Positions 22,538 through 61,311 of a stretch of 64,000 bases of DNA are shown piece by piece (position 1 is the first letter of the stretch; every line of letters begins with the position of its first letter). The stretch covers positions 1 to 64,000 of the forward strand of contig JBDRWW010000001.1 of the NCBI GenBank assembly GCA_039802605.1, written 5' to 3'. Below the pieces are notes generated by a model that did not search any database, had not been told where the DNA came from, and worked only from the letters and a program-made list of their open reading frames with translations. The stretch is from a candidate division WOR-3 bacterium. GTDB lineage: Bacteria; Hydrothermota; Hydrothermia; LBFQ01. The position numbers and the translations under genes were made by a program.

Positions 22538-22609
22538 GCGGGCGTAGCTCAAAGGTAGAGCACCAGCCTTCCAAGCTGGGGGTTGCGGGTTCGAGTCCCG
22601 TCGCCCGCT
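22538..22609 (+). tRNA. tRNA-Gly(TCC), CCA not encoded
   Basis: Acceptor stem GCGGGCG/CGCCCGC, anticodon arm CCAGC-CTTCCAA-GCTGG, T-loop TTCGAGT, discriminator T followed by CTT. Confidence 0.95.
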
Positions 22610-22612
22610 CTT

Positions 22613-22792
22613 ATGGCGCGCGTTTGTGAGATATGCGGAAAAGGTGTGATGACCGGTCATAACATAAGCCATTCGCATAGACTTACGAAAAGAAAATTTT
22701 ATCCAAACCTTAGGAAGGCTAAGGTTAGGATAGGTTCTTCCGTTCGTGTTGCAAGGGTATGCACGAAATGTTATAGAAAGTATAAGGTATAA
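22613..22792 (+). CDS. rpmB: 50S ribosomal protein L28 (Zn-binding type)
   Basis: [10 protein letters not shown]...[19 protein letters not shown]...VCTKC; true start ATG 22613 (the longer ORF-track start lies inside the tRNA). Confidence 0.95.
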
Positions 22793-25700
22793 AAGGGCAA
22801 AAGGTTTGGATTATTAGGGTAATTTTCGTTTTTGTTCTTTTCTCAATAGTTTTATGGTTTGTTTTAAATTGGGTGGCGATTTTAAGGTTTGTTATAAGCT
22901 CATTGATAAAGGTTCCATTAAGGGGCGAGGTTGAATTCGTTTCCCTAAACTCCGTAAAATTAAAGGATATAAGCATAGGAAACGGGATTAGGGCAAAGGA
23001 GATATACATACACTACTATTTGGATAAACTCCTGCTTTACCGTACGGTTGATTATATAAATGTATATGGGGGGTATGTTGATATCCCTTCCGTAATTGAA
23101 GATTTTGCCAAGGAAAAAGGAGAGGAGAAAGCCCGTAAAAAACCCAACTTACCTTTTCTTTCCCTTGAAATGGTTGAGTTTGAAGATTTTACCTTAAAGT
23201 CGTCAGAAAATTTGGAAATATGGGCTTTTGGTGGGAAGTTTTTATTTGGTATGGGGGGTAATAGGATTGAATTAAAAAGGATATCATTAAATGCCGTTGA
23301 TATACCCCCTTTGGTGTTCATTGATAGCGCAAATGCGGATCTTTCCTTTGACTTTGACACATTAAAGTTATTTTCACAAAAAATAATGGGTTATATTGAT
23401 ACCATGAGGTTTTCAACTGATGGATTTTCGCTTAGCTATCCGATACAAGGGGATACCCCAAATATCTTTATGTACATAAAAAGCGGAACTCTTAGTATTA
23501 TGGGTACGAAAAACGCAAAAATTAACTGGAAATTCCTTAACAACCTTGGGGATATGTCTTTTGAAACGGATAGCGTATGGTATTCGGATATATTCGTAAA
23601 ATATGCAAAGGGAAATATTGATTTGAAAAGTTATCCGGAGATATTTGTAAGCGCATCGGGTGAAATATTCAACGGGAAATTTGAAACATCCGTGTTCGTG
23701 GATAGTTCCATAAATATATTAGGTTCCACTTTCGCCTACAACATATCGCCTATACCCAATGTAAGGATTACGGGTAAGGCGGATTTTGAAGTGTATAAAT
23801 CCCGAATAAGGGTTAAGGGATATGTATCGGATTTTTACAATTCTGAACCCGAATTCACATTAAACGATGTATACTTTTCGGTGGAAAGCCCCGATTTTAT
23901 TAAGTATTCCTATAAAGTTTTTAACAATTTCATAAACATTAGCGGTTGGTACAACCTTAAAGGTGAGGATTTTTATGCAAGGTTTTCTTTAAGAAAGCCC
24001 ACCCGAATCGTATCATTTGGGAATTTGAGGGTTTTCACATTTGAAGGGGATGGTGAGGTTGTGAAAATGGGTAGGGAATTGGATTTATATATAGGGAAAG
24101 TGAATGGTTGGTATGCGATAATTGATTCATTTCGTATAGACGAATTTTCGTTACAAAACTTCCGGATTAAAACGGACTTTTACTCCCCAAATATTAAAAA
24201 CACATTTTTAAAGGGTTACTTTACCGCAAACACTTTACACCCGGAAACATTGAAAATTTCGGGAAATATTGATTACGATTCGGGTGATGTAAAGGGGTAT
24301 ATAAACTTTCAAACGGCAAAGTTTGGAGATGGCAGGGTATATATAACCGGTTATATAAGCGATACGAATAACTTAAAGATAACATTTGACAGCCTATACT
24401 ATTCGTACAAAAACTTGGATATAAAGGTTTATGGGATTTCTTACTCCCTTGATACCTCGGTTATGAAGGTATTCGTACCCCAGAACAACCTACTAAACGG
24501 CTCATTGCAAGGGGAATTGAGTTTAAACAGGAAAACGGATACATTATCCGGGTTTTTAAAGGGGAACAATATTTCTATATCAAGGATAATACCCATATTC
24601 TTTCCGGAGGCGGATTTCTATTTGGATACCATAAATGTGGATTTGGTATTTAGTGGTACAACGGATGATCCCGTTGTAAGCGGCAATATAAGGACTTCAT
24701 CGGTGGTATTTCAAAATATATTTTTGGATTCAACCGATTTAAACGCCATAATATCCAAAGATAAGATAACATTGGAAAAATCAAAGATTTGGGCGGGTGA
24801 AAACCCTTTATTTGTAGAAATCCTGAAAGTTTTCTTCGACAACAGGGTTATATATGGGCACATATATACCAATGGGTGGAACACGGATAATATTTTGAAC
24901 TTCCTTATGCCCGAATCAAGTTATGTAAATGCCAATATATGGTTGGCGGGCACCATTGATAACCCGGATATTATGGGACAGGCCTTTTGGACGGCAAAAT
25001 CCGTTGAAATTAACGGAAACCCAATTTCAAGGCCAAAAATCCACATGATTTTTGATTCCAAGAAAATAATCTTGGCCCCGAGAAACGATACAAATGTTAT
25101 ATATTTGGGAGGCGGAAGTGTTGAGATAGGGGGAAATATAAGCACGAACGGTAATATAGACTCTTTGGTTTTGAATTTGAGAAATGCGTATATAAACCTT
25201 GATAACGAGACATCCGCAAGGCTTTCTGGAAATCTGCTTGTAAGTGGGAATATATATTCTCAAATATTTGTTAGGGGGGAGATATTCTCGCATGAGTTTT
25301 ATTTTGCAAAACCGTTATCGGAGTTGGCGGCACCACCCCAACAGAAGAGCCAAAAACCCATTATATTGTACGATATACACTTCTCGGCACCCCGCAGGTT
25401 GTTCATAAACTCCCCTATATATTCTCAGGCTTTTTCATCGGTTGTTATGGAAATAGATGCGGAGGTATCTGCGGACATTACCCTTCAAAAGGTATCACCC
25501 GTTTCCGCCCTGAACTATGGGTATTTGGAGATCATAAGGGGGAATGTCTATGTCCTTGACAAGGTTTTTAACATAGACAAGGGTTATATAGAGTTGTACG
25601 GGAACGATGGAAACATAAACATATCCTCTTCAACCACAATTTTAAAGCCCATAAACGATACAATACTTGGAAATTCTTACGATAGTGTAAATGTTTTTGT

Positions 25701-26082
25701 GAATATAACGGGAAGCATAAGCAAACCAAAGGTTGATGTATGGAGCCAACCTTATATGAGTACCGGGGAAATTATTACTTTAATACTCGCCAGGCAAGGT
25801 GGTTTGGTATCCGCCCTAATAGGTATGGGCCTAAGGAAGGGATTGAGAATACAAGAGTTTAGCATAAAAAATACCGGAGATATATCGCAATTAATTTTTG
25901 GGACATATGTGGGAAGAAACCTATACATCCGTTATTCGTCAAACAAGGTTGGTCAATCAAACTATAACAGTTTAAAAACCCAATACTTTATAAGAAACAA
26001 CCTATCCGTATACGGTGAAAGGTTGGAAGACGAAGGGGAAAACAAATACGGAGTGGGTGTAAGCGTGAGAATAAGGTTTTAA
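22789..26082 (+). CDS. tamB: TamB / AsmA-like translocation-assembly module protein
   Basis: Long beta-rich protein with a DUF490-like C-terminus (G...P.V..WS.P.M...EI...[14 protein letters not shown]); N-terminal TM anchor is encoded upstream of GTG 22873, back to ATA 22789. Confidence 0.7.
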
Positions 26083-26110
26083 AATTTTTTCATCATTAGA
26101 ATACAATAAG

Positions 26111-26398
26111 GTGAGTGGATTAGAACTTGAAAGGTGTTGTAATCCGTGGGAGGAATGCTGTATAAAGTTTGGAAAGGTGCGGGGAAGACAAACATATTTT
26201 TGTAAGAGGTCAAAAAGGAGATTTGTGTGGGGTGGTAAGTGGAACAAGTATTCATATAAATGGTTTTATACGGTTATAAACATGCGTAACAACGGTTTGA
26301 GTTTAAGGGAAATTTCGAGGAGGACTGGGATCCCTTTTTCAACGGTTAGGAGGTTTGTAAAGAGGTATTTGGTTACCATCAAAACGGATCAAAACTGA
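26111..26398 (+). CDS. IS1 InsA-like protein (degenerate Zn ribbon + HTH); no InsB transposase
   Basis: KFGKVRGRQTYFCK...RF and GLSLREISRRTGIPFSTVRRFVK; TAGAAT 8 nt upstream. Confidence 0.65.
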   Translation: MSGLELERCCNPWEECCIKFGKVRGRQTYFCKRSKRRFVWGGKWNKYSYKWFYTVINMRNNGLSLREISRRTGIPFSTVRRFVKRYLVTIKTDQN

Positions 26399-26425
26399 TT
26401 TCGGGACGGGTGGAGAATACCGATA

Positions 26426-27772
26426 ATGAAAAGGTTTGATATGGATTACGACATTGTGATTATAGGCGGTGGTTCCGCGGGATTTTCGGCTGCAATAGAG
26501 GCAAGGAAATTAAATGCCAAAGTTTTACTCATAAACGATGGATTAATAGGGGGAACTTGTGTGAATGTGGGATGTGTCCCATCAAAGTACCTTTTAAAAA
26601 TGGCAGAAATTGGAAAACCCTTTGATTATGTCGTGGAAAACCTTCCGAAAATAATAGAGAAAATGAGGAGGGAAAAATACGAAGAACTCGTCGAATTTTA
26701 CGGGTTTGATTTTATAAGGGGAAAGGGAAAAATATTATCGGAAAACGATGTAGAGGTTAATGGTAAAGTTTTCAAAACGAGATATATCATTATCGCCACG
26801 GGTTCAAGGCCATTTATACCGCCGATTAAAGGCTTGGATACCGTTCCGTATTTAACAAACCTTAATATTTTTTCCTTAAAAGAGCTTCCCAAAAAGTTGC
26901 TAATAATAGGTGGGGGATATATAGGAGTTGAACTTTCACAGGCGTTTAGGAGGTTTGGCAGTGAAGTTTATGTCGTGGAGATGGCAAACCAGATATTACC
27001 CCAAGAAGACGAAGATATTGCATATACCCTTAAAGAAACCCTTGAAAACGAAGGCGTAAAAATTTATACGGATTGTGTTGTGGAAAGTGTAAGCATAAGT
27101 AACGGAAATATATCCGCAAAATGTAAGGATAAAAACGGTGAATTCCTTCTAAACGCAACCCATATACTCGTGGCCGCAGGAAGAATGGGTAATACGGAAG
27201 GCTTGGGACTTGAAAACATAGGGGTAAAGGTTGATGGGAAGAGGTTTGTTATTACGGACGATACGCTTAGGACAAGTGTAAAAACCATCTTTGCGGTTGG
27301 GGATGTAAATGGTAAATCCCCCTTCGTATATGTTGGCGCAAGGGAGGGAAAATTGGCAGTAAGAAACGCTCTACTAAGTGAGAATAACAAATTAAATTAC
27401 AATGTTGTGCCTTATGTGGTTTTTACGGATCCGCAGGTGTCGGGTGTTGGTGCTGGGGAGAGGTTTTTAAAAGGTTTGGAGATTGAATACGGAAAAAGTG
27501 TTTTGGATTACAACGATATACCGATCGCCGGATTAATACCAAACACAAAGGGTTTTATAAAGGTTTTATTCTCACATAACGGTAAGATTATAGGGGTAAG
27601 AATTATAGGGAAGTTGGCAGGTGAATTGATAACTCCTTATACCATTGCGATGGGTTTGGGTGTTTCAAAGGATAAACTAATGGATGTTCTTTATCCGTTT
27701 CTGACCTTTTCCGAAGGGATAAGGTTATCCCTTTTAGAAAACGCCGAACATTTGAGTTGCTGTGCGGGATAA
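26426..27772 (+). CDS. merA: Mercuric reductase without the NmerA domain
   Basis: GGGSAG, GGTCVNVGCVPSK, YPFLT, C-terminal LSCCAG vicinal cysteines. Confidence 0.88.
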   Translation: MKRFDMDYDIVIIGGGSAGFSAAIEARKLNAKVLLINDGLIGGTCVNVGCVPSKYLLKMAEIGKPFDYVVENLPKIIEKMRREKYEELVEFYGFDFIRGKGKILSENDVEVNGKVFKTRYIIIATGSRPFIPPIKGLDTVPYLTNLNIFSLKELPKKLLIIGGGYIGVELSQAFRRFGSEVYVVEMANQILPQEDEDIAYTLKETLENEGVKIYTDCVVESVSISNGNISAKCKDKNGEFLLNATHILVAAGRMGNTEGLGLENIGVKVDGKRFVITDDTLRTSVKTIFAVGDVNGKSPFVYVGAREGKLAVRNALLSENNKLNYNVVPYVVFTDPQVSGVGAGERFLKGLEIEYGKSVLDYNDIPIAGLIPNTKGFIKVLFSHNGKIIGVRIIGKLAGELITPYTIAMGLGVSKDKLMDVLYPFLTFSEGIRLSLLENAEHLSCCAG

Positions 27773-27799
27773 AGGTGGGTGCCGGTATTTCAATTGACC

Positions 27800-30466
27800 C
27801 TAAAAATCCCTCTCCGAGAAAACCCTCCCCTTTATTGATGCCTGTGCGGCCGCCAATCTTGCCACGGGTACCCTAAAAGGTGATGCGCTAACATAATCAA
27901 CCCCAGCCTCAAAAAACTTAAAAATACTGTTCGGATCACCACCATGCTCTCCGCAAACCCCCACTTCAAGGTTTTTCCTTACGGATTTGCCCAATTTGAC
28001 GCCCATTTCAACCAGTTTAACAACCGCATCATCAACGGTTTGGAAGGGATCATCGCTTAGAATTTTCTTTTCCAAATATGCGGGTAAGAATTTACCGACA
28101 TCATCCCTTGAAAACCCCAAAGTTGTTTGGGTTAAGTCGTTCGTACCGAAGGAGAAAAAGTCCGCGTATTCCGCTATTTTATCCGCCATTATCGCCGCCC
28201 TAGGGAGTTCAATCATAGTTCCGATCTCTATTTCGTTTTCAATGCCGTATTTTTTGAGGGTTTCGCTTATTAATTCCCTCATCAATTTCATCTCGCTTTC
28301 AAAGGCCACCAATGGTAGCATGATTTTGGGTTTTGGATTGAAACCCTCTTTTTTAAGTTCCAAATATGCTTCCGCAATAGCTTCGGTTTGCATAATGTAT
28401 ATATCCGGGAAAGTTATGGCCAACCTAACACCTCTATGCCCAAGCATGGGGTTCATCTCCTTGGTTGCCTCGACCAAAGTTCTTATCCTTTCGGGTTGAA
28501 CGTTTAACCTTTCGGCCATCTCGTTTATTTGCCTATCATCCTTTGGCAGGAATTCGTGAAGGGGCGGATCCAAAAGCCTAATGATAACCGGAAGCCCATC
28601 CATTTCCCTCAATATACCCTTAAAGTCTTCCCTTTGGTAATTTTTTATCCTTTCCTTTGCCCTCTCGTAATCCTTACCCTTTTCCTCTGCGAAGAGTATC
28701 ATAACCCTGAAATCCCAAATCCTATCCTCGCCGAAAAACATATGCTCCGTTCTCGCCAAACCTATACCCTCTGCACCGAATTCCCTTGCGATCTTTGCAT
28801 CCTTTGGGGTATCGGCGTTAGCCCTAACCCCTATATCCCTGTATTCATCCGCCCAACTGAGAATATCCGCCACTTCCCCGGATATTTCGGGCATAACCTT
28901 AGGAACATCACCGAGATATATATTTCCCGTTCCCCCATCTATGGTAATAACATCGCCCTTTGAAACCTTGATGTCTTTAACGACAAAATACCCTTCTTTT
29001 TCATGAATCTCCAAAGACTCGGCGCCTACTACGGCGGGCTTACCCATACCCCTCGCAACCACGGCGGCATGGGATGTCTTACCACCCCTTGATGTTAGGA
29101 TTCCAACCGCTGCCGCCATACCCTTAATATCCTCCGGAGATGTTTCCGTCCTAACCAAAATAACCTTTTCGCCTTTTTCCTTTAACTCGTAAGCCTCCTC
29201 TGGGTCAAAAACGACCTTACCCGTAGCCGCCCCCGGTGAAGCCGGTATTCCCGAAGCGATGGGTTTGGGCGCGTTTTTTTCGTCTATGTAAGGGTGCAAA
29301 ACCTTTTCAAGGTTGTAAGGATCCACCCTCAATATCGCTTCTTCCTTTGATATAATCCCTTCCTTTGCCATATCAACCGCTATTTTTATTTCCGCCCTGG
29401 GAGTCCTTTTACCCTTGCGGGTTTGCAGAAGCCAAACCTTTTTCCTTTCTATGGTGAATTCTATATCTTGCATTTCCCTATAATACCTTTCCAGCTTTTC
29501 CGCCAAATCAATTAATTGATTGTAAATCTCGGGATCCCAATTCTTTAATTCGGATAAAGGCATTGGCGTCCTTATACCCGCCACTATATCCTCTCCCTGC
29601 GCGTTCGGTAGAAATTCCCCATATATTACCTTTTCCCCCGTAGAAGGATCCCTCGTGAACATAACACCCGTCCCGCTGTCATCCCCCAAGTTTCCAAAAA
29701 CCATAGCAACAACATTACAAGCCGTTCCCCAATCTTCCGGAATCTTATATATTTTCCTGTACTCTACTGCCCTCGGATTCATCCAAGAATCAAAAACCGC
29801 CCTTATGGCCATCCATAGTTGTTGGTAGGGATCATCCGGTAAGGTTTTTCCATGCCCCTTTATTACCCATTTAAACCTATTAACCGCCTCTTTCCAATCC
29901 CCGGCATCCAAATCGACATCTCTTATTTCCTTGAAATCCTTGCCCAACTTTTTGGCCTTTTCCCTCTTAATCTCGTCCAATTCCCTTTCAAACTCCTCCT
30001 TATCTATCTTCAAAACAACATCCCCAAACATTTGGATGAATCGCCTGTAAGCATCGTAGGCAAATCTTTCGTTGCCAATTTTGGACAAACCCTTAACGAT
30101 TTCATCGTTTATACCCAAGTTTAATATCGTGTCCATCATACCGGGCATGGAAGCCGGTGCCCCAGACCTAACGGAAACCAACAAAGGATTATTGGGATCT
30201 CCAAACCTCTGTCCCTTTGCCTCCTCAACTTTTTTTAAGTTCTCCAAAACCTCCTCTTCCAAACCTTCGGGGAAGGTTTTGTTATGCTTGTAATAATAAG
30301 AGCATACCTCGGTGGTTATGGTAAAACCCGGAGGAACGGGCAAACCCGCATGTGCCATTTCGTGCAAACCCGCACCTTTACCTCCCAACAACATCCTGAT
30401 TTTATCCTTTTCCAACCCATAACCCTCTGCAACACCGTTTCCAAAGAAATAAACATACTTTTTCAT
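27800..30466 (-). CDS. ppdK: Pyruvate, phosphate dikinase
   Basis: LLGGKGA.L, VSVRSGA..SMPGMMDT, GGKTSHAAVVAR, SFGTNDLTQ, CGEHGG. Confidence 0.97.
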   Translation of the reverse strand: MKKYVYFFGNGVAEGYGLEKDKIRMLLGGKGAGLHEMAHAGLPVPPGFTITTEVCSYYYKHNKTFPEGLEEEVLENLKKVEEAKGQRFGDPNNPLLVSVRSGAPASMPGMMDTILNLGINDEIVKGLSKIGNERFAYDAYRRFIQMFGDVVLKIDKEEFERELDEIKREKAKKLGKDFKEIRDVDLDAGDWKEAVNRFKWVIKGHGKTLPDDPYQQLWMAIRAVFDSWMNPRAVEYRKIYKIPEDWGTACNVVAMVFGNLGDDSGTGVMFTRDPSTGEKVIYGEFLPNAQGEDIVAGIRTPMPLSELKNWDPEIYNQLIDLAEKLERYYREMQDIEFTIERKKVWLLQTRKGKRTPRAEIKIAVDMAKEGIISKEEAILRVDPYNLEKVLHPYIDEKNAPKPIASGIPASPGAATGKVVFDPEEAYELKEKGEKVILVRTETSPEDIKGMAAAVGILTSRGGKTSHAAVVARGMGKPAVVGAESLEIHEKEGYFVVKDIKVSKGDVITIDGGTGNIYLGDVPKVMPEISGEVADILSWADEYRDIGVRANADTPKDAKIAREFGAEGIGLARTEHMFFGEDRIWDFRVMILFAEEKGKDYERAKERIKNYQREDFKGILREMDGLPVIIRLLDPPLHEFLPKDDRQINEMAERLNVQPERIRTLVEATKEMNPMLGHRGVRLAITFPDIYIMQTEAIAEAYLELKKEGFNPKPKIMLPLVAFESEMKLMRELISETLKKYGIENEIEIGTMIELPRAAIMADKIAEYADFFSFGTNDLTQTTLGFSRDDVGKFLPAYLEKKILSDDPFQTVDDAVVKLVEMGVKLGKSVRKNLEVGVCGEHGGDPNSIFKFFEAGVDYVSASPFRVPVARLAAAQASIKGRVFSERDF

Positions 30467-30475
30467 AAAGCCGAT

Positions 30476-30508
30476 ATTCTATAACCGAAAAATTGCCAAC
30501 CGTATAAT
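30476..30508. promoter_or_regulatory. Back-to-back -10 boxes (ppdK / nuoG)
   Basis: TAGAAT (-) 30476-30481 and TATAAT (+) 30503-30508, each 9 nt before an ATG. Confidence 0.65.
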
Positions 30509-30517
30509 ATCCAAACC

Positions 30518-43268: not shown

Positions 43269-44184
43269 GGTTTCAAAGCTTTATGAGGGTTTCTTAAAAA
43301 AGTTTTGTAAGGTTTTGGCGGGGGAAAGGGGGTTTTGGAGGAGGATAAAAACACCGGATATTAGCCGCCCTGGTTTATTATTGGCGGGTTTTGAGGAGGA
43401 ATTCCCCGCAGAGAGGGTACAGATTATAGGATTAACGGAAAGGGCATACCTATTAAGCCTTGGTGAAAGGGGTGAAGATGCGATAAAAAGGTTGTACTCA
43501 AAGGAACCGCCAACGGTTATACTAACCTCCTTTGCTGAAAAGATAAACGAAAGACTAAAAAACCTTTTTTCTTACTATGCCGAAAAATTCTCAATACCTA
43601 CATTCTTTACGGAAGTCGGGACAACAAGGGTTATATCTTTAATTATGGATAAACTCCAATACGAACTCGCACCAACGATATACGAACATGGGGTAATGGT
43701 AGATGTTTTTGGTGTGGGTATATTGTTAAAGGGAAAATCCGCAATTGGTAAAAGCGAATGCGCCATTGAACTGATAAGGAGAGGACACAGGTTTATAGCG
43801 GATGACCTCGTGGCCATAAAGTTATACCCTGCCGATAATTTACTCGCAGAATCTCCAAGGGAAGAGATAAAATACTATATGGAAATTAAAGGGGTTGGCA
43901 TAATTCATATCCCTTCAATATACGGATTGCAAGCGGTTAAAGAAAAAACTTCCCTTGATTGCGTAATAGAGTTTATTCCCCAAGAAGAGTTTAAGTATAG
44001 CCCGGATACCGAGGTGGAAAGCGTTAATTATTTCGGTATAAGCGTTCCAAAATTCAAATTACCCATAACACCCGGGAAGAATATGGCAAGCATAGTTGAA
44101 ACGGTTGCATTGGTGTATAAAAAGGGCGATTTAGCCTATCAAGAGTTTAAGGAAAAGTTGAGGAAGTTGGTTGATAAAGGTTAG
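43249..44184 (+). CDS. hprK: HPr kinase/phosphorylase
   Basis: RPGL.LAG, HGVMVDVFGVGILL.GKSAIGKSECA.ELI.RGHRFIADD, PGKN. Confidence 0.92.
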   Translation: METRFIEVSKLYEGFLKKFCKVLAGERGFWRRIKTPDISRPGLLLAGFEEEFPAERVQIIGLTERAYLLSLGERGEDAIKRLYSKEPPTVILTSFAEKINERLKNLFSYYAEKFSIPTFFTEVGTTRVISLIMDKLQYELAPTIYEHGVMVDVFGVGILLKGKSAIGKSECAIELIRRGHRFIADDLVAIKLYPADNLLAESPREEIKYYMEIKGVGIIHIPSIYGLQAVKEKTSLDCVIEFIPQEEFKYSPDTEVESVNYFGISVPKFKLPITPGKNMASIVETVALVYKKGDLAYQEFKEKLRKLVDKG

Positions 44185-45551
44185 GCGGAATATTTTTTAA
44201 TAATGTCATCCAATACTTTTAGGGCTTCCTCGCGGGTTTTTACAACCCCCTCAGCCCTCAACTCTTCTATTTCTTGAAGGATTTTCTTGTAAATCGGCCC
44301 AGGTTTTAGACCCCTTTCCATAAGGTCATACCCCGTGATCAAACGGGGTGGTTTGTTTGCCTCGGCTTCCTGCTGTTTAAGGAAATCCTCCAATTTTTTA
44401 GCCAATCGCAACTGACCGGCTACACCCTCGGCTCTAAGGGAGGTGGCCAACGCATCTACATAGGCCACAAGGATTATCGGGAACGCCCATTCGCCCGTTC
44501 TTTTATAATAACGGTATAATGCCCTTCTCGTCACATCTGGTGTTGCCAATAGGTGAGGGTGCATGTGCTCCGCAACTATTAAGGATATGGCTTTATAAAT
44601 CTCCTTAGGCATTCTCAACCTTTTACCAATTGAATTAACGATTTTTGAACCTATGTAATCGTGTCCGTGAAAGCTTATTTCACCATTTTCGTATTTGTAT
44701 GTCGCGGGTTTTCCCACATCGTGGAACATCGTCCCCATAACGATAATAAATCTACCCTTATCGTTTCTTATGGCCTCCATCCTGTGCAGGTAATAAACGA
44801 AGGGCCCATCTTCGAGGGTTTTCAGTGAAATTTCTAACCTTCTTAATGCCAAGAGTGTATGAGACCAAACATCCACATCCAAACCTTTTAAGGGCTTTTT
44901 TAACCCTTCAAGTTCGGGGAAAATTTTGAATAGAATTCCGCTTTCGGCCATAGAGGATACCTGCTTATAAAAGTTTTCTGAGGACAGTATTTTTGTTAGT
45001 TCGTAGGTTATCCTCTCGGGCGAAACCTTCGTTATGAGGTGGGAGCGGGAGGAAATCTCAAAAAATGTTCTACCCTCAATTTCAAAACCCAATTCTGCCG
45101 AGAACCTAAAAGCCCTAAGCATACGCAAAGGATCTTCTTCCAAGTTTTCCGGAAGTGTTATCCTTATTATTCCACTCTGTAAATCCTTTAAACCACCAAA
45201 GACATCTATAATTTCCCAACTATCCAAAGAAATTGCTATGGAGTTTATGGTAAAGTCCCTCTTATACAAATCGTCGTATATAGTTCCGGTTATAGGGGTA
45301 AGATCTATCTGTTCATCCTCCAAAACAACCCTAAAAATACCAAGCCCCTCGTCCAAAGGTATTAACACACCCTTTAAATCCATTGCTATGCTTTTCCCCG
45401 TTTCTTCCGGATTCCATACGGCTATATCCCAATCGGTTGGAACTTTACCCAACATTATATCCCTTATAGCCCCACCTACAAGGTAAGAACCTTTCGGCAA
45501 AAGTTTATACCAAGGTTTATACCTAATCAGGCTCTTAATTATTTCAACCAT
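44181..45551 (-). CDS. Class II tRNA nucleotidyltransferase with HD domain, probably CC-adding
   Basis: VGGAIRD..DWD, KRDFTIN, EDPLRMLR, HD domain (HDVGK); flexible loop is missing. Confidence 0.85.
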   Translation of the reverse strand: MVEIIKSLIRYKPWYKLLPKGSYLVGGAIRDIMLGKVPTDWDIAVWNPEETGKSIAMDLKGVLIPLDEGLGIFRVVLEDEQIDLTPITGTIYDDLYKRDFTINSIAISLDSWEIIDVFGGLKDLQSGIIRITLPENLEEDPLRMLRAFRFSAELGFEIEGRTFFEISSRSHLITKVSPERITYELTKILSSENFYKQVSSMAESGILFKIFPELEGLKKPLKGLDVDVWSHTLLALRRLEISLKTLEDGPFVYYLHRMEAIRNDKGRFIIVMGTMFHDVGKPATYKYENGEISFHGHDYIGSKIVNSIGKRLRMPKEIYKAISLIVAEHMHPHLLATPDVTRRALYRYYKRTGEWAFPIILVAYVDALATSLRAEGVAGQLRLAKKLEDFLKQQEAEANKPPRLITGYDLMERGLKPGPIYKKILQEIEELRAEGVVKTREEALKVLDDIIKKYSA

Positions 45552-48480: not shown

Positions 48481-48546
48481 ACACCTTTAATTCTAAGGCT
48501 GTTATTCTTCATATGGGGATACCAACAACCTTATAATATCAAGTGA

Positions 48547-51569: not shown

Positions 51570-51621
51570 AAGATATGCAAATTATAAAGAGGAAAAACTT
51601 TCAACCTTAAAATTTCCGGTT

Positions 51622-53502: not shown

Positions 53503-55655
53503 AATTCGCCTGAAACGCTTAAACCGAAGTTCCAAGAGAATTTTTGCATTTTATCGTAATACGCGTATAAATGGCCCGATATATTAATTTCGTAAAGGTT
53601 TTTCTGCGGATAAAAACCCAGTAAGACTACCGGCCCTTCGGGTTTTATATATACCTCATCACCTTTCTCCCCGTAATAATTCCTGTAATAAAGGCTTAGC
53701 GAAAAGGGTTTTCTTATCCTGATAAAAGGGGAAAGTGCCCAAGAAGTTGATTTCAGAACTTCAAGACCAAAAAATTTATACCCAAACGATAGGGAATTGT
53801 ATTCTATATACTTACCAAAAACCCTTTTTAAGTTCTCGTATTCCATAAACCAATTGTAGTTGGCGAACCCGTTAAAAACCCTGTTATATCTGAACTCACC
53901 CGTTTCCACATCCCTATAAAGGTCAAATTTCACACCCACACTATCCCTACCAAACCAAGCATTCAAGTTTATGGTTTTTAAATCCTTAAAATCCGTCCTC
54001 AAAGATGCGTTTAGGTATTCCAAAACCGATATTCCTATATCGTATATTGCTGTATCCGTGGGGAAGTAAACCATTTCCCTTTTATAACTCCCAAAGGGTT
54101 TTGGGTAAAACATCCCCAAAGAATCCCTTTCGTAATCCCCCCATCCCTTACCCACATATATAAACCTCTCCTCCTTTTTAAAACTTATGGATGAAGATAT
54201 GTCCAAACGGATAAACTTCCAAATTAGACCGAGTATAAAGGACCTCCCCATTTTGCTAACCCCGTAGTTTAAAACCAAACCTTCGCCAATAAAACCTATG
54301 TCATAAGCCAAAAAACCGTCGTCGTACCTCTTAATCGTTCCAACAAGTTTTTCCGATTTACCATTAATCCCATAAGATCTACCAAATGTATCCTCCGCCA
54401 TAAATCCCCCCGCAAATAGGCCTTTTATAAAACCGCCAAATTCGTACCTGTTCCAAATACTTGTCCTTAAAAGGTTTGCATAAAACCCTCTATCCATTCC
54501 AAGTTTTATATCCCCGGAATACACGAAATCGTTTTCAAAAAAGCCCCTCAAAAATTTACCATTCAATCCCTCAAAATTCAAACCAATACCGAGATTTATG
54601 TTGTAATTCCCCGTATTTACTCCGGTTGCGGTATAGGGAATATAGGGGTTATAACCAAAATTCCCAAAGGAAAATGCGTATATTTTTTCCCCAATGGTGT
54701 AGTTCCACCTACCGCCCATGTTCCCCCGATCGTTAAAGTTTATGGATAGGTAATCCCCACCCCTCTCAAACCCCACTTCACCCATATACTCCCCATTATT
54801 CCCTTCTATTGGTTTTATGGTATAGTCCCCTCCACTTCCCACAAACACAAACCTATCACCGAGGAATTTATAATCCCCGTTTTTAACATTGACAAAATCG
54901 CACATCAAATCCCCGTTCAAAACATCTATGTAAAATGTATCCTTTGAAAACCTGTAATCCCCTTTTGATGTCCTTATACACCCTTTAAAACTTTCAAACC
55001 TTTGAGGGGTTATACCGCTTCCCCTTATGAAAAATCCCCCAACCCTTATTACCCCATAAGAGAATAGGTTTTGGCTACCCGTAGATTCCTGGTATTCAAC
55101 CGTAAGGATGTCGCCATCTTCAAATTCCCGTGTTATATATATGGCCCCATTTTTAAGGACATAACCGCTTTTTAGCACTCTGCCGTTTATATATACCCTG
55201 ACGGAATTCTCAACGACACCCTTGGAAGGTATAACATAAGGTCCGTTAAAACCCTTAAACAACCTAAAATTAACCCTTTTAACATCCGAAAACGACCTTA
55301 AAAACTTCAAAGTATCCCCTTTATAAAAAATCCCCAAACCTTCCCCCCTTACCCTTCCCCTTACAAAATCCTCGCTTAATATCCCACCAAATAAACCCAT
55401 ATAATCCTTGAAAATTTGTACCCTAAAATCCTGCAGGTTTTCTATCCTCTTAACCTCGCCGCTAACACCCGCAACATCTCTTATGGCTAAACCCAATGCC
55501 CACCCGTATATATCACCCTTAATTTCAGCATATAACCCATCGGTGCCAAAGTTGTAAAAACCACTCCAACCTTTTAGGGTTAAAGAGGTATCCCATTCAA
55601 AATAGGAAAATGAATCCGGGGTTAAAGGTTTTAGAAGGTATAACTCGTAAAACAA
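53499..55655 (-). CDS. Putative outer-membrane beta-barrel protein with a SprA-like segment
   Basis: Gly/aromatic strands and terminal Phe; GPY......V.NSVRVYINGRVL..GY....G.I.......IL.VEYQ resembles a SprA-type insert. Confidence 0.5.
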   Translation of the reverse strand: MFYELYLLKPLTPDSFSYFEWDTSLTLKGWSGFYNFGTDGLYAEIKGDIYGWALGLAIRDVAGVSGEVKRIENLQDFRVQIFKDYMGLFGGILSEDFVRGRVRGEGLGIFYKGDTLKFLRSFSDVKRVNFRLFKGFNGPYVIPSKGVVENSVRVYINGRVLKSGYVLKNGAIYITREFEDGDILTVEYQESTGSQNLFSYGVIRVGGFFIRGSGITPQRFESFKGCIRTSKGDYRFSKDTFYIDVLNGDLMCDFVNVKNGDYKFLGDRFVFVGSGGDYTIKPIEGNNGEYMGEVGFERGGDYLSINFNDRGNMGGRWNYTIGEKIYAFSFGNFGYNPYIPYTATGVNTGNYNINLGIGLNFEGLNGKFLRGFFENDFVYSGDIKLGMDRGFYANLLRTSIWNRYEFGGFIKGLFAGGFMAEDTFGRSYGINGKSEKLVGTIKRYDDGFLAYDIGFIGEGLVLNYGVSKMGRSFILGLIWKFIRLDISSSISFKKEERFIYVGKGWGDYERDSLGMFYPKPFGSYKREMVYFPTDTAIYDIGISVLEYLNASLRTDFKDLKTINLNAWFGRDSVGVKFDLYRDVETGEFRYNRVFNGFANYNWFMEYENLKRVFGKYIEYNSLSFGYKFFGLEVLKSTSWALSPFIRIRKPFSLSLYYRNYYGEKGDEVYIKPEGPVVLLGFYPQKNLYEINISGHLYAYYDKMQKFSWNFGLSVSGEF

Positions 55656-56336
55656 TCAGAACTCTCGTACCACCCCAAGATTTATGGTTGGGGAATTTGG
55701 TATTAAAGGCGCGGGATTTAGGAGGTTGATGTTTATAATGTTTTCCGTGCTTATTTCAATAGATGGGATACTATCGGGTTTATAAGGGTAGTTATACGGA
55801 TAGTTTTCCCCGTACGCATATGAAAATCCGATAAGGAATGTGTAGGGTTTTGAGATCTTTTTGAGGGTTATCGAAAAGGGGGTGTAGTTTGTGTTCAATT
55901 TGTATATAAGGGTATCCAAGGAAGGATTGCCGGTATTCGGATAACTGACCTTTGCATTCGGTGAAGGCGTTATACGATAATCTAAAACTATATTTTCGGG
56001 TAATATTTCTGCAAGGATTCCCCCAAGCGCGCCAAAGACGATATCCCCCAAACTAACAGGCGATGTTCTCAAAACCCTTTCCTCATAAACCTCCCAAGCA
56101 ATGGACGATACAAGGGGTATTATTACCGCACCTTTACCCCTTATATCCGTTATCCTGATAAACCAATAGTACATAAACATATGGGCGGGATAGGATTGGG
56201 TTACAAAATCCCCAAAGTCCTTTGAGGGTGGGAGTACGGCTACACCAAAATCACCCATTCCAACCCTATAAGCCTCCATCCTTTTACCGAAAGCATCCAC
56301 ATAAGTTGCCTTTTGTACGAATGCCATCCACCACAT
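55656..56336 (-). CDS. Hypothetical envelope protein (YfiM/DUF2279-like segment)
   Basis: IAWEVYE...SLGDIVFGALG; terminal Phe. Confidence 0.5.
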   Translation of the reverse strand: MWWMAFVQKATYVDAFGKRMEAYRVGMGDFGVAVLPPSKDFGDFVTQSYPAHMFMYYWFIRITDIRGKGAVIIPLVSSIAWEVYEERVLRTSPVSLGDIVFGALGGILAEILPENIVLDYRITPSPNAKVSYPNTGNPSLDTLIYKLNTNYTPFSITLKKISKPYTFLIGFSYAYGENYPYNYPYKPDSIPSIEISTENIININLLNPAPLIPNSPTINLGVVREF

Positions 56337-56339
56337 CCC

Positions 56340-57179
56340 CTATATTTTATGGCTGTAAGATATGTTTTTCCAGTAATTTTTCATAAGTAGTGCATCCCCT
56401 TCAATGTTCGGGCTTTCTGAGACTATGAACCCGTCGGCCTCAAATTCATAAAGGGTTTCCAAAATATCCTTCCAATTCAAATCCGATTCTTCGAGGTTTA
56501 GGTGGTGTTTCTCCCCTTTTGAAGAGTATGCTATTCCCGACATATGTATGTGCATGTTTTTTAAACCGTTTTCACCTAGGTATTCCTTTATTTTTTCCAG
56601 AACCCAAACAAATTCCCCCTTTGTATTAAACTTACCACCACTCCTCGCGTGTAAATGGGCAAAATCAAGGCAGGGTAAAACCCCTCCTATCTCCGCCGAA
56701 AGTTCAAGCAACTCTTCAAGGGAACCGTATTGCGTAGGCTTTCCCGTGGTTTCCGGTCTTAGAATAACGGATATACCTTCGGATTTCAGCCTTTCGGATA
56801 GATCTTTGAGAATCCCTAAAACCTTATTATGAACATCCTTTGGGTCATCTCCCAGATAATAGGCGGGATGAAAGCATATGTTCTCCGCGCCCGCCATATA
56901 TCCGATTTTTGCGGATTGGTATATCCTCTCAATAGAAGCCTTTAACTTATCCCTTTCTTTGGCGTTTAAATTTATCCAATACGGGGCGTGGACGGAAAGG
57001 GACAAACCGTTCTTTTCCGCTATCTCCTTCACCCTCTTAGCCTTATCCTCCTTCATATTAACACCCCTAACAAATTCCAGCTCCATCCCGTCTAAGCCCA
57101 ACTCCTTAACCCTTATCAACCCATCTTCCGTAGAACCGCTCCTACTTGAAATTGGAACACCCGCCGTAAAGAATTTCAT
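56340..57179 (-). CDS. nfo: Endonuclease IV-like AP endonuclease (TIM barrel)
   Basis: SVHAPYWINL, FHPAYY, PETTGK...G..EE, CLDFAHLHAR, HIHMSGI, HL.L, ESP.IE.DA. Confidence 0.88.
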   Translation of the reverse strand: MKFFTAGVPISSRSGSTEDGLIRVKELGLDGMELEFVRGVNMKEDKAKRVKEIAEKNGLSLSVHAPYWINLNAKERDKLKASIERIYQSAKIGYMAGAENICFHPAYYLGDDPKDVHNKVLGILKDLSERLKSEGISVILRPETTGKPTQYGSLEELLELSAEIGGVLPCLDFAHLHARSGGKFNTKGEFVWVLEKIKEYLGENGLKNMHIHMSGIAYSSKGEKHHLNLEESDLNWKDILETLYEFEADGFIVSESPNIEGDALLMKNYWKNISYSHKI

Positions 57180-57181
57180 AA

Positions 57182-58687
57182 TTATCGGACTATTACCTTC
57201 TCCCTCTTACCCCCATACTCTACAATATAAACACCCCTCTTTAAACCAACAAAACCTTTCCCTTTTATCTCCGCAACCTTTATCCCCGATGCATTGTATA
57301 CCTTTACAAAACCTTCACCCAAAACCCTTATTCCACCCTTTACGGCCTCAACCCTTATAATTCCCTCGGTTTCCTCCTTAACCGCTATCGGATCATCATA
57401 ACCGAGTATATCACAAGTCCCAACATTGTTTGACCTGAAAACATATAGGTTTGGGGCATCCATTTCACCCCTGATTATCAATTCAACACAGGTATCACCA
57501 TCCACATCCGCTATTACGGAATAGCCCGATGCGCAACACCCACTAACGGGACCACCATAAGAATAACTCCACAACCATGCACCGTTGGATGCACTATAAA
57601 CATCCAAATAACCATCGTGATTTGCAAACAATACCTCGTATCCCGGGTTCGTCATATCAAAATCGCCTACGGTTATTGGGGCATGCGAATGAACTTCATA
57701 AGCCGTGGTTATTGCCCATATAACCGCCCCGGTACCGCCATCTATGGCGGCAAAGTTCCACCAATAATCCGCAGTGAATATATCCCTTGTCCCGTTTCCG
57801 TTTATGTCGGGACCTATAACAACAGATTCACGACCGTCAAATGAAAGCTCCGAATATCCCGAAACACACCAGGCCAAGGAACCAGTCCCGTTTATACGAC
57901 ATGTGTAATTGTTGTAAAAATTAACAAAGATTTCCATTATTCCATCGCCATCAACATCTTCAACGGCGGGTGCGGAACCGTATGAATATCCGGTTGAAAC
58001 ACTCCACTTTATGCCACCATCCGTTCCCCTTAAAGCGTAAACGGTCCCGGAGTTATCGGCCACTATAACCTCTATTTGCCCATCGTTATCAACATCACCA
58101 ACGGCAACCGCCGCATCGGATACGACTGTCGTATTAACCCACCTTGTCATTCCATCAGACCCGCGAAAGGCGTAGGTGCCATTCCCCGTAGCAACTACCA
58201 CCTCCTTTTGGCCATCAAGGTTTATGTCATACACCCTAGGAGAACCGTTATATGCATACCCAACATACTGACTCCATATAATTGTTCCATTTGTCCCTTC
58301 AAGGACATAAAGATAACCGTCATAGGATGTGAAGGCAACTTCCATATTTGGATCGCCATCTATTTCGTCCAATGCAGGGGTTGAATATATAGAACCACTT
58401 GTTGTATATGTCCAGCGAATTGTCCCATCGGGACCGTTGAAACACCAAAGCGTCCCCCCATCATCGCCAACGACAACATCTGGAACACCGTCGTTTGTTA
58501 TATCAAGAACGGAAGGCCCGGAATATATGCCGGTTGTAGCGGAAAGGGATCTGAACCAAGCCACCACTACGGATGAAGGCCCGGAAAAACGGGCGGTTGC
58601 CATCGCCCTACCCCTACCCAATATATCCCTCTTTAAACCCCCCCAATATTGAGCAGGAGGCATTTGCGCAAATATTACCCAAATCAT
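57182..58687 (-). CDS. Secreted FG-GAP/PQQ-like repeat beta-propeller protein with T9SS-like tail
   Basis: Repeated D.D.DG..E(V/I) and LY.L.G.DG...W units; C-terminal VYNASG.KV...GVYIV..G....KVIVR. Confidence 0.85.
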   Translation of the reverse strand: MIWVIFAQMPPAQYWGGLKRDILGRGRAMATARFSGPSSVVVAWFRSLSATTGIYSGPSVLDITNDGVPDVVVGDDGGTLWCFNGPDGTIRWTYTTSGSIYSTPALDEIDGDPNMEVAFTSYDGYLYVLEGTNGTIIWSQYVGYAYNGSPRVYDINLDGQKEVVVATGNGTYAFRGSDGMTRWVNTTVVSDAAVAVGDVDNDGQIEVIVADNSGTVYALRGTDGGIKWSVSTGYSYGSAPAVEDVDGDGIMEIFVNFYNNYTCRINGTGSLAWCVSGYSELSFDGRESVVIGPDINGNGTRDIFTADYWWNFAAIDGGTGAVIWAITTAYEVHSHAPITVGDFDMTNPGYEVLFANHDGYLDVYSASNGAWLWSYSYGGPVSGCCASGYSVIADVDGDTCVELIIRGEMDAPNLYVFRSNNVGTCDILGYDDPIAVKEETEGIIRVEAVKGGIRVLGEGFVKVYNASGIKVAEIKGKGFVGLKRGVYIVEYGGKREKVIVR

Positions 58688-58693
58688 GTTAAT

Positions 58694-58721
58694 ATTATAC
58701 TCCTGATTGATTTTTTGTCAA
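58694..58721 (-). promoter_or_regulatory. Consensus sigma70 promoter TTGACA-N16-TATAAT
   Basis: Perfect -35 (58716-58721) and -10 (58694-58699) hexamers, 6 nt before ATG 58687. Confidence 0.8.
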
Positions 58722-58729
58722 GGCAAAAA

Positions 58730-59911
58730 TCACAAACCCCCTTTCCTCTCAATGGCCTTGAATATCACATACTCCTGAATCTCGTTGGTTCCCTCAAAGA
58801 TCCTGTTTATCCTCGCATCCCTATACATTTTCTCAACGGGGTAATCCTCTATGTATCCGGCCCCACCGTGTATTTGAACGGCCAAATCAACCACCCTATC
58901 CAAGACCTCGGATGCAAAAACCTTTACTATCGAAGCCTCCCTAATAATATCATATCCCATATCCGCCATCCAAGCCACCCTATAAAGCAAACTTTCAAGG
59001 GTAAATATGTCTATTGCCATTCTCGCGAGGTAGTGTTGTATAAGTTGGAAGTTTTTTATGGGCTGCCCAAACTGTACCCTTTCGTTTGCAAATTTCCAAG
59101 CAACCTCAAACGCCTCCTTTGCACCCCCAAGGCAACCGGCTCCTAAGGTGATCCTACCTATGTCAAGGGTTTCCATCGCAATCTTAAAACCCTGCCCAAC
59201 CCCACCTAAAACATTTTCTTCCGGAACTTCAAGGTCTTCAAGTACAACATAGGCGGTTCCCGATGCCTTTATCCCCATCTTCTTTTCCGTTTTCATAACC
59301 TTCCAACCCTTCCATTTGGTTTCCACTATAAAGGCTGTTATGCCGCCATAAGCACCGAGAGATTTATCGTTTGCGGCAAATACAACGGCTATATCGGCGA
59401 TGTTCCCGTTTGAAACATAGAGTTTTGAACCGTTTAAAATCCACCTATCGCCCTTTTTAACCGCGGTCGTTTGTATATGTTGGGCATCGGAACCCGCATT
59501 CGGTTCCGTAAGGGCGAAGCACCCAATATATTCACCCGTGGCTATCTTTGTTAAATACTTTTCTTTCTGCTCTTTATTCCCGCCTATGTTTATAGCACCA
59601 CCGCACAAACCCGTTGATGCCCCAAGTAGCACCGCCACGGATGCATCACCCCTAGTTATCTCCTCTTGTAATACCGCATTTCCCAATTCGCCGAGGCCAG
59701 CGCCTCCATATTCTTCGGGTAAAAGGATACCAAAAAATCCCTGCTCCGCCATCTTTTTTATTAGCTCTTGGGGTATTTCTTCCCTTTTTTCCATCTCCCG
59801 CGATATGGGTTTTATTTCCCTATTCACAAACTCCCTAACCATTGCCCTAAGGTCTTCAAGGGTCTCAACCTTATCCTTGGGTAAGTTCAAAAATTCAAGG
59901 GCGCTTTTCAT
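58730..59911 (-). CDS. Acyl-CoA dehydrogenase
   Basis: PEEYGGAG, FALTEPNAGSDA, LNGSK..VSNG, R.QFG.PI, QIHGG.GY, RIFEGTNEIQ; start MKSALEF, 8 nt after TAGAAT. Confidence 0.94.
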   Translation of the reverse strand: MKSALEFLNLPKDKVETLEDLRAMVREFVNREIKPISREMEKREEIPQELIKKMAEQGFFGILLPEEYGGAGLGELGNAVLQEEITRGDASVAVLLGASTGLCGGAINIGGNKEQKEKYLTKIATGEYIGCFALTEPNAGSDAQHIQTTAVKKGDRWILNGSKLYVSNGNIADIAVVFAANDKSLGAYGGITAFIVETKWKGWKVMKTEKKMGIKASGTAYVVLEDLEVPEENVLGGVGQGFKIAMETLDIGRITLGAGCLGGAKEAFEVAWKFANERVQFGQPIKNFQLIQHYLARMAIDIFTLESLLYRVAWMADMGYDIIREASIVKVFASEVLDRVVDLAVQIHGGAGYIEDYPVEKMYRDARINRIFEGTNEIQEYVIFKAIERKGGL

Positions 59912-59981
59912 AACCCTGTATTCTACTCCCGTTTTGCTTATCAAAGTGTGGGAATTTTTTCACCTTTATAATATCCACTTC

Positions 59982-60054
59982 GGGCCGTTAGCTCAGTTGG
60001 TAGAGCACCGGATTTTTAATCCGGGGGTCGCAGGTTCGATTCCTGCACGGCCCA
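59982..60054 (+). tRNA. tRNA-Lys(TTT), CCA not encoded
   Basis: Acceptor stem GGGCCGT/ACGGCCC, anticodon arm CCGGA-TTTTTAA-TCCGG, T-loop TTCGATT, discriminator A followed by TTT. Confidence 0.95.
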
Positions 60055-60057
60055 TTT

Positions 60058-61311
60058 TTGGCCAAAATTGTTGTTAAAGGCGGTAACGGGTTAAAGGGTT
60101 CCGTTAAAATAAGCGGTGCAAAAAATTCCGCCTTGGCATTAATACCCGTATCAATCCTGATCGATGGAAATGCGGAATTCGTAAATGTACCAAATGTCGA
60201 GGATGTCAGAACTATGCTTGAACTCTTAAGCGTTATGGGCTCTGAGGTTAGTTTTGATAAGGGTAATGTGTTTATCAATACATCCAACATCAAAGAGCCC
60301 TTTGCCCCTTATGAGTTTGTGAGCAAGATGAGGGCCTCTATATATGTTTTGGGCCCCCTTTTGGCAAGGTTTAAAAGGGCCAAGGTGGCTTTACCCGGGG
60401 GATGTGCCTTTGGCCCAAGACCTATAAACTTCCACTTGGAGGGTTTGAGGAAAATGGGGGCGGAAATAGAGATTGAACACGGGTATATAATAGCAAAGGC
60501 CAAAGAACTGAGAGGTGCGTATTTAACATTTGAAAAGAAATCAGTAGGGGCAACCATACACCTTATGACCACTGCGGTCTTTGCAAAAGGGGAAACGGTT
60601 ATAGATAACGCCGCAATAGAACCGGAAGTGGTGGATGTGGCCAAATTTTTAAAGAAATGTGGGGCAAATATTGAGGGGGAGGGGACCGATACCATTAGGG
60701 TTTATGGAGGGGGTTTCCTTAAAGGTGGTATAAAATACGGGGTAATACCCGATAGGATAGAGGCGGCAACCTTTATTATAGCATCCTTAATAACAAACGG
60801 GGAGGTTAGGGTTGAAGGCATAAGGCCAAAGGATATGGGAGCGGTAATATCAAAGCTTATGGAATGCGGGGGGCGTTTTGAAATCGGAGAGGATTATGTA
60901 TTGGTTAAACCTTCGGGAAGGTTGGAGGCCAAAGATGTTGAAACCGCCCCATTTCCCGGATTCCCAACGGATGTACAACCGCAATATATGGCCCTTATGA
61001 GTGTTTCTAATGGGAAATCCTTGATAAAGGAGGGTATATATCCCGATAGGTTTAAGCATGCCTTTGAACTTATAAGGTTGGGGGCTAATATAAAGGTTGG
61101 GGAAGGGTTTGCCATAGTTGAGGGGGTTGAATCCCTGAGTGGGGCACCGGTTGTGGGAAGCGATCTCAGGGCAACGGCATCTTTGGTTTTGGCCGGTCTT
61201 GTCGCAAAGGGTATAACGGAGGTGGATGGATACGAGCATATGCTAAGGGGTTATGAAAACTTTGAGGAGAAAATTAGAAATTTGGGGGCAGAATTGGAAG
61301 TCATTTTTTGA
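60058..61311 (+). CDS. murA: UDP-N-acetylglucosamine 1-carboxyvinyltransferase
   Basis: ISGAKNSAL, MRAS...LGPLLAR, LPGGCAFG.RP, PDRIEA.T, PGFPTD.Q, DLRA; TTG start. Confidence 0.97.
   Translation: MAKIVVKGGNGLKGSVKISGAKNSALALIPVSILIDGNAEFVNVPNVEDVRTMLELLSVMGSEVSFDKGNVFINTSNIKEPFAPYEFVSKMRASIYVLGPLLARFKRAKVALPGGCAFGPRPINFHLEGLRKMGAEIEIEHGYIIAKAKELRGAYLTFEKKSVGATIHLMTTAVFAKGETVIDNAAIEPEVVDVAKFLKKCGANIEGEGTDTIRVYGGGFLKGGIKYGVIPDRIEAATFIIASLITNGEVRVEGIRPKDMGAVISKLMECGGRFEIGEDYVLVKPSGRLEAKDVETAPFPGFPTDVQPQYMALMSVSNGKSLIKEGIYPDRFKHAFELIRLGANIKVGEGFAIVEGVESLSGAPVVGSDLRATASLVLAGLVAKGITEVDGYEHMLRGYENFEEKIRNLGAELEVIF

Follow-up and report, generated by a model that had tools for sequence, protein, structure and literature searches.

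The window considered here, i.e. the whole stretch of 64,000 nucleotides (nt) analysed from a candidate division WOR-3 bacterium, contains two tRNA genes, each of which ends three nt upstream of the start codon of a protein-coding gene, rpmB in one case and murA in the other. Junctions of this type are found at most tRNA genes of the genome. They suggest that tRNA and mRNA are made as a single transcript, and that this is cut at the tRNA 3' end, to yield near-leaderless mRNAs, by a nuclease not recognisable as ribonuclease (RNase) Z. On sequence data, a probability of roughly 60% is assigned to this reading. The architecture of the junctions, their statistics, their conservation and the lack of alternative signals are plain observations.

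In the window ARAGORN calls these two tRNA genes and no others: Gly(tcc), placed at 22538-22610, and Lys(ttt), placed at 59982-60054. Discriminators were then fixed by anchoring on the T-loop, and correspond to T22609 and A60054, which gives a tRNA-Gly(UCC) of 72 nt (22538..22609) and a tRNA-Lys(UUU) of 73 nt (59982..60054), both on the plus strand as are all the elements of the two units. CCA is encoded by neither. A TATAAT -10 hexamer ends 13 nt before the first nucleotide of tRNA-Gly (22519..22524) and 9 nt before that of tRNA-Lys (59967..59972). The whole spacer between tRNA-Gly and rpmB is the trailer CTT (22610..22612), an instance of the YTT found genome-wide at positions 74-76; the spacer between tRNA-Lys and murA is TTT (60055..60057). 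The rpmB gene (22613..22792) starts with ATG and encodes the 59-amino acid (aa) ribosomal protein L28; murA (60058..61311) starts with TTG and encodes a protein of 417 aa. Both lack a Shine-Dalgarno (SD) sequence and a -10 hexamer of their own. Residues 1-55 of L28 align to positions 1-57 of the 58 in profile TIGR00009, and residues 1-415 of MurA to positions 1-416 of the 419 in NF006873; by these alignments the called starts are the true ones. A preliminary description of this DNA had reported CTT followed by the ATG at 22613, TTT followed by the TTG at 60058, the lack of encoded CCA and the TATAAT hexamers at 22519-22524 and 59967-59972. All its factual statements on the two junctions hold.

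The genome (denominated G000) comes from a hot-spring bacterium and is available as 23 contigs, for a total of 1.65 Mb at 41% G+C and 90% completeness. ARAGORN finds in it 46 tRNA genes, mostly solitary, and one transfer-messenger RNA (tmRNA) gene. Spacers were measured from the discriminator to the first ATG, GTG or TTG opening an open reading frame (ORF) of at least 45 aa. They are 0-5 nt long at 29 of the 46 tRNAs, or 29/42 if tRNAs trailed by another tRNA are excluded, since four of the remaining 17 are members of one cluster and are each followed by another tRNA. Spacer length is 0 nt in one case, 1 nt in 12, 2 nt in four, 3 nt in nine, 4 nt in two and 5 nt in one, with modes at 1 and 3 nt. 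By the same test a start codon is found 0-5 nt downstream of 1420 of 20000 random positions (7.1%), and of 96 out of 1137 stop codons of long ORFs (8.4%). Tight junctions are thus enriched about nine-fold over both, and the binomial probability of 29/46 at the random rate is about 3e-22. The two junctions of the window are cases of a genome-wide rule, and not a coincidence; the enrichment in short spacers, which had been based on two examples, now rests on 29. The identical spacing of 3 nt stressed in the preliminary description does not survive, as a fixed distance is ruled out by the range of 0-5 nt in the genome and by the variation in relatives (0, 2 or 3 nt at murA; 2, 3 or 4 nt at rpmB).

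Transcription signals are found before the tRNAs and not before the genes that follow them. A -10-like hexamer is located 6-14 nt before the first nucleotide in 39/46 tRNAs, mostly at 9-13 nt. The seven tRNAs outside this range include the four internal members of the cluster, Ile-gat and Gln-ctg, which have a TATAAT at 15-16 nt, and one tRNA without any such hexamer. The promoters are strikingly uniform, and read cTTTATAAT followed by approximately ATCCACYT (e.g. 22510-22537 and 59960-59981 in the window). Because the -10 element mostly ends 9-13 nt before the mature 5' end, the 5' leaders of the tRNA precursors should be a few nt long. No -10-like hexamer was found within 45 nt upstream of any of the 29 junction genes, and no SD-like 4-mer at positions -18 to -4; the bases upstream of these genes are those of the GC-rich T arm and acceptor strand. 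A promoter inside the tRNA and an SD sequence concealed in the tRNA 3' half are both excluded by these counts, and what had been stated for two genes, that promoter and ribosome-binding site do not fit between tRNA and start codon, extends to all 29.

SD sequences are in general infrequent in this genome. Of the 361 long ORFs whose start is unambiguous, 84 carry an SD-like 4-mer and 97 a -10-like hexamer that ends 6-9 nt upstream of the start. The latter distance is the predicted signature of leaderless transcripts, which would be widespread in the genome; with so many genes carrying a -10 box 6-9 nt before the start, the organism probably reads leaderless mRNAs routinely. Loss of the anti-SD sequence is excluded, as the 16S tail retains CCTCC. 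The tuf gene, located 19 nt after tRNA-Gln(ctg), has AAGGAGGT in the spacer. The organism, having kept both, is able to use SD sequences and mostly does not.

Genes found at the junctions are largely recognisable from their N-termini. The 36 ORFs located downstream of tRNAs (29 tight, 7 with spacers of 6-19 nt) were searched against NCBIfam. In 18 of the 29 tight cases the profile aligns from residue 8 or earlier of the protein to position 12 or earlier of the profile. The 18 proteins are L28, MurA, a GalE-like epimerase, PurB, Asd, a Gfo/Idh/MocA oxidoreductase, the HMA domain of CopA, a CC/Se protein, Prs, NuoH, a 2-hydroxyacid dehydrogenase, an Rrf2 regulator, FadD, NuoA, CcmE, L33, AhcY and PdxT. 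Five of the other 11 have no family match, and six have matches that start further in, or are internal or C-terminal only. The ORF test takes the first start codon past the discriminator. The ORF adjoining tRNA-Leu(cag) (L021; G000 C5:46411-47279) is a 160-aa remnant of diaminopimelate decarboxylase, in which N- and C-terminal pieces of the profile are fused and the middle is absent; it is probably a decayed or shortened gene.

Positions 74-76 read YTT in 40/46 genes: the trailer is TTT in 24 and CTT in 16, the others being TTG (two), TTA (two), CAT (one) and CCT (one). CCA is found in none of the 46. YTT also follows the discriminator in 14 of the 17 tRNAs that have a spacer longer than 5 nt or are followed by another tRNA; being present where no ORF adjoins, it belongs to the tRNA genes rather than to the start codons. 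TTG is the start codon of 23/29 junction genes, compared with 73/361 genes genome-wide and 16/96 leaderless-type genes. In the simplest reading, the TT of the trailer would also provide the start codon with its first two bases, meeting at once the needs for a U-rich trailer and for a very short leader.

Relatives were compared within the family of G000 (f1), a sister family of the same order (f2) and the other families of the class (f3-f9). Both junctions of the window are kept across f1, as conservation in relatives would have it. The tRNA-Lys(ttt) gene adjoins murA in 11/11 f1 loci that reach upstream, a twelfth ending at a contig edge; each of these 11 loci has a TTG start, a spacer of 0, 2 or 3 nt and the TATAAT upstream of the tRNA. 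No tRNA-Lys was found upstream of murA in 18 loci from other families. The tRNA-Gly(tcc) gene adjoins rpmB in 12/12 f1 genomes, with a spacer of 2 nt in six and of 3 or 4 nt in three each. Elsewhere in the class rpmB is differently organized. It has its own TAAAAT, ending 6-7 nt before the ATG, in 6/6 f2 loci, and its own TATAAT, ending 6 nt before the ATG, in 2/2 f5 loci; in 10/10 loci from f3, f4 and f6-f9 a GGAGG-like SD sequence precedes the ATG. Within a single class, then, an essential gene occurs SD-led, as a leaderless gene with a promoter of its own, and abutted to a tRNA. This is the strongest indirect argument available, and suggests that the abutted state is the leaderless state reached through processing.

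Spacers were also measured in five relatives, taking the 30 best-scoring tRNA loci of each, which correspond to 29-34 distinct tRNAs of the 43-47 present per genome. Among the free-standing tRNAs so sampled, spacers of 5 nt or less are found in 10/26 in G005 (same family, other genus) and 13/26 in G017 (f2), and in 1/25 in G020 (f4), 2/28 in G027 (f5) and 0/29 in G024 (f8). By this census, the trait is a property of the order holding f1 and f2. ATG accounts for 8 of the 13 tight starts in G017, usually with a T just before it; with tight starts mostly ATG in f2, the trait is not an artefact of T-rich trailers. Eight tRNA-gene pairs are common to G000 and the 30-tRNA sample of G005. The spacer between tRNA-Trp and rpmG is 3 nt in both f1 and f2, and 16 nt with the SD sequence AAGGAGGG in f4.

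The prs gene is located behind a different tRNA in three families, 1 nt after Ser-cga in G000 (L014, C2), 3 nt after Ala-tgc in G017 (L129) and about 24-26 nt after Val-tac in G024 (L176), which suggests that the tRNA module has been repeatedly captured or replaced. In G024 (L170-L199) 14 of 34 sampled tRNAs encode CCA; 14/29 spacers are 13 nt or shorter, and starts cluster 9-13 nt past the discriminator, and the T-rich spacers before them show no clear SD sequence. The f8 arrangement looks like a looser form of the same coupling.

From these data we infer that tRNA and mRNA are co-transcribed, that the transcript is cut at the 3' end of the tRNA, and that translation depends on this cut. Most tRNA genes of the genome and of its order would form the 5' part of a transcription unit for a protein gene. 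The uniform TATAAT promoter, 9-13 nt upstream, would drive the tRNA with a very short 5' leader, and RNA polymerase would continue into the protein gene starting 0-5 nt past the discriminator. The short 5' leader of the precursor would be removed by RNase P, whose RNA, of type A, is encoded at C11:7865-8270 (211.6 bits, over the cut-off). An endonucleolytic cut in the conserved YUU trailer would release an mRNA with a leader of 0-5 nt, to be translated in leaderless mode, and would leave a tRNA 3' end ready for CCA addition by the CCA enzymes. With no promoter and no SD sequence of its own, and a folded tRNA abutting the start codon, the gene should become translatable only after the tRNA 3' cut. 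The preliminary description had proposed a shared transcript in which 3' processing by RNase Z exposes the start codon at a constant distance. Transcript and processing have gained from the rule at 29/46 tRNAs, from the lack of own signals at all 29 genes, from the leaderless signature, from conservation and from the contrast with f2 rpmB; enzyme and constant distance have been given up.

Several data weigh against a cut that makes leaderless mRNAs. The real start could be further downstream in the 11/29 junction genes that lack N-terminal profile support. Non-AUG codons function poorly on leaderless mRNAs in E. coli, and 23 of the 29 junction starts belong to this class, being TTG. Gene-gene junctions are also tight, as in 418 of 1137 long ORFs the last 20 nt before the stop codon contain the start of an ORF, and part of the pattern is for this reason general compaction. 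The census of relatives covers 29-34 of 43-47 tRNAs per genome, and the random rate used for comparison is that of G000. Metatranscriptome contigs (three runs, two that contain part of the stretch and a third of the same study, plus one run of unknown type) matching C1:59900-79899, which includes three junctions, are pieces of 150-400 nt, and none bridges a junction; tRNA-sized pieces have loose ends on both sides and come from other organisms. The contigs are evidence neither way.

The identity of the nuclease weighs on the same side. RNase Z, the enzyme named in the preliminary description, has no match to TIGR02651 at E<=0.001 in the 90% complete G000, and none over the cut-off among 31 class members; the best scores are 47 bits in f1 and 42 bits in f2, whereas f3 reaches 117-126 bits and f8 76-90 bits. 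G000 likewise yielded neither RNase E/G nor RNase J. The nucleases to be expected are therefore missing, and all three were set aside as candidates, with the provision that absence of a gene is not proven in a genome 90% complete. Five ORFs of G000 have a metallo-beta-lactamase fold and the HxHxDH motif; four of them are generic, the fifth being a beta-CASP RNase of 434 aa. The latter was rejected as a lineage-specific nuclease, because its distribution (8/11 in f1, 0/7 in f2, at E<=1e-20) does not track the trait. Its gene seems broken or split, with pieces and in-frame stops, in G004 C26 and G006 C91/C124. Among the endonucleases looked for, RNase Y is the sole one present throughout, over the cut-off in 31/31 class members.

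As no tRNA gene encodes CCA, some CCA-adding enzyme is needed. Two class-II tRNA nucleotidyltransferases are encoded by the genome, one in the window (44184..45551, minus strand; CCA-adding family, with an HD domain) and one at C2:23817-24971 (plus strand). They may represent a split between CC-adding and A-adding enzymes, or a CCA-adding enzyme and a poly(A) polymerase. C74 is encoded by 16 of the 46 tRNA genes. In organisms of the B. subtilis type, maturation of CCA-less tRNAs depends on RNase Z; CCA-less tRNA genes and CCA-family enzymes are shared with this type, from which the genome differs in that an rnz gene was not found.

Other explanations have to be weighed against processing. The tRNA could act as an attenuator, in which the GC-rich helix formed by acceptor and T arm, followed by U residues, terminates most transcripts, 3'-to-5' exonucleases finish the tRNA with no need for a site-specific endonuclease, and only occasional read-through reaches the gene. 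Tight spacing would then result from compaction and from coupling of gene dose to tRNA promoters, and not from the making of leaderless mRNAs. The failure to find RNase Z, E/G and J is in line with this, as are the YTT trailers of tRNAs without a near ORF and the longer T runs carried by solitary tRNAs (e.g. Met on C3, Ala-ggc, Met on C14). Two or three U residues, however, make a weak terminator, and the essential genes murA, rpmB, rpmG, prs, asd, purB, nuoA and nuoH would be left to read-through with no other promoter or SD sequence. Moreover, the read-through RNA still needs a start codon freed from the tRNA, and the f2 counterpart of rpmB is an ordinary leaderless gene. Attenuation is considered unlikely, though worth keeping in mind. 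The uncut tRNA-mRNA fusion could alternatively be translated directly, if the folded tRNA mimicked a 5' end or recruited the ribosome. No dedicated 3' endonuclease was found in the searches for RNase Z, E/G and J, and a spacer kept at 0-5 nt could equally be a geometric requirement of such a mode; nevertheless all 46 CCA-less tRNAs need a free discriminator end, so the junction must break anyway, and a folded tRNA 0-3 nt upstream of the codon in the P site would clash with the mRNA exit path of the ribosome. We know of no mode of translation that starts directly behind a folded tRNA, and hold this alternative to be very improbable.

The junctions could, at last, be a product of annotation and compaction, with true starts located downstream or promoters further upstream, and TTG codons arising by chance from T-rich trailers. 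The genome is densely packed, 23 of the 29 starts are TTG codons built in part from T residues of the trailer, and N-terminal support is missing at 11 genes. This would leave unexplained why 18 N-termini are colinear with curated profiles from positions 1-12, and why enrichment is about nine-fold over random and post-stop positions alike. Chance TTG codons cannot account for f2 junctions, where starts are mostly ATG (8/13), and the junctions are retained in two genera despite changes in the spacer. An artefact is likewise very improbable. A tRNA 3' cut producing near-leaderless mRNAs is the reading preferred here.

The organization described recalls the tRNA punctuation of animal mitochondrial transcripts (Ojala, Montoya and Attardi 1981, as cited in PMC10941002). 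In both cases tRNA genes adjoin protein genes that have no SD sequence; in both, according to the present proposal, mRNAs lack a leader, tRNA excision sets the mRNA 5' end and CCA is added post-transcriptionally. In mitochondria, two or three promoters serve the whole genome, whereas here nearly every tRNA has its own, in a free-living bacterium with a genome of 1.65 Mb. Mitochondrial tRNAs are found on both sides of mRNAs, and here only 5' of the gene; RNase Z, the counterpart of ELAC2, was not found, and most start codons are UUG. The arrangement would function as mitochondrial punctuation does, yet fails two of its defining features, RNase Z and few shared promoters.

Bacterial operons in which a tRNA promoter drives a protein gene within one transcript are exemplified by thrU-tyrU-glyT-thrT-tufB of E. 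coli. The mRNA of such operons keeps its leader and SD sequence, and translation is independent of where the tRNA is cut. The tRNA promoter would similarly drive the gene in the units described here, but the classical form is represented only by the tRNA-Gln(ctg)-tuf pair; the 29 units with spacers of 0-5 nt, rpmB and murA included, have no SD sequence. Leaderless mRNAs made directly by promoters have been described in Actinobacteria and Deinococcus (PMC4633059, PMC4007540, PMC3848588). Their translation likewise begins at the 5' end or a few nt into the mRNA, with no SD sequence, a geometry that is predicted here for the 97 genes with a closely placed -10 box and for f2 rpmB. At the tRNA junctions, differently, the 5' end would carry a monophosphate or a hydroxyl resulting from processing, in place of a triphosphate. 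Plant mitochondrial t-elements, archaeal tRNA-like elements and tRNA-snoRNA co-transcripts are cut by RNase Z (PMC4247193), and there too the cut that sets the end of the neighbouring RNA is marked by a tRNA-like fold. Those are single cases or mimics dependent on RNase Z, unlike the real tRNAs found at the junctions here, which make up about two thirds of the set. No genome-wide tRNA punctuation in a bacterium is described in the portions consulted of the full-text literature, subscription journals aside, including PMC4633059, PMC3848588, PMC4247193, PMC4681348 and PMC10941002.

To our knowledge, in no other free-living bacterial lineage does tRNA excision define the 5' ends of many essential mRNAs, and if the cut is real at the RNA level this would be the first such lineage. 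It would provide a natural system in which ribosomes use processed leaderless mRNAs with a 5'-monophosphate, a leader of few nt and often a UUG start codon. It would also imply that bacteria whose tRNA genes all lack CCA, and which have no RNase Z, possess a tRNA 3' endonuclease of a different kind. The evolutionary path remains visible, since SD-led, leaderless and tRNA-abutted forms of rpmB coexist in one class. Gene finders that expect a ribosome-binding site or a promoter will miscall TTG starts of this kind. More tentatively, with somewhat less than an even chance of being right, the whole order may be supposed to have turned tRNA genes into promoter-plus-processing cassettes for housekeeping genes, where each tRNA brings a strong uniform promoter, and a single RNase Z-independent cut in YUU both matures the tRNA and makes a leaderless mRNA, often with a UUG start. 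Production of L28, L33, MurA, Prs, Asd and Nuo subunits would in this way be coupled directly to the transcription and maturation of tRNAs. The arrangement would be an independent bacterial invention of mitochondrial-style punctuation.

Other structured RNAs were considered as further punctuation marks, and no ORF adjoins the 3' end of either tmRNA or RNase P RNA. A TATAAT ends 8 nt before the 5' end of RNase P RNA. Directly after this RNA (G000 C11:8270-8350) a TATAAT is followed, at a distance of 8 nt, by a GTG opening an ORF, a unit of the leaderless type.

The gene located upstream of tRNA-Gly in the window (21762..22523, plus strand) is listed as an ORF of 253 aa, which we take by eye to resemble an NAD kinase, for the presence of a GGDGT motif. 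Its TAA stop codon (22521-22523) sits within the TATAAT of the tRNA-Gly promoter, and there are no spare bases between this ORF, the promoter, tRNA-Gly and rpmB. In one contig of run X18 (depth 2), the tRNA-Lys stretch (L079 83-158, corresponding to 59982-60057 in the window) is found twice in tandem, with 10 other letters in between; it possibly stems from a strain with a duplicated gene, or from an assembly artefact.

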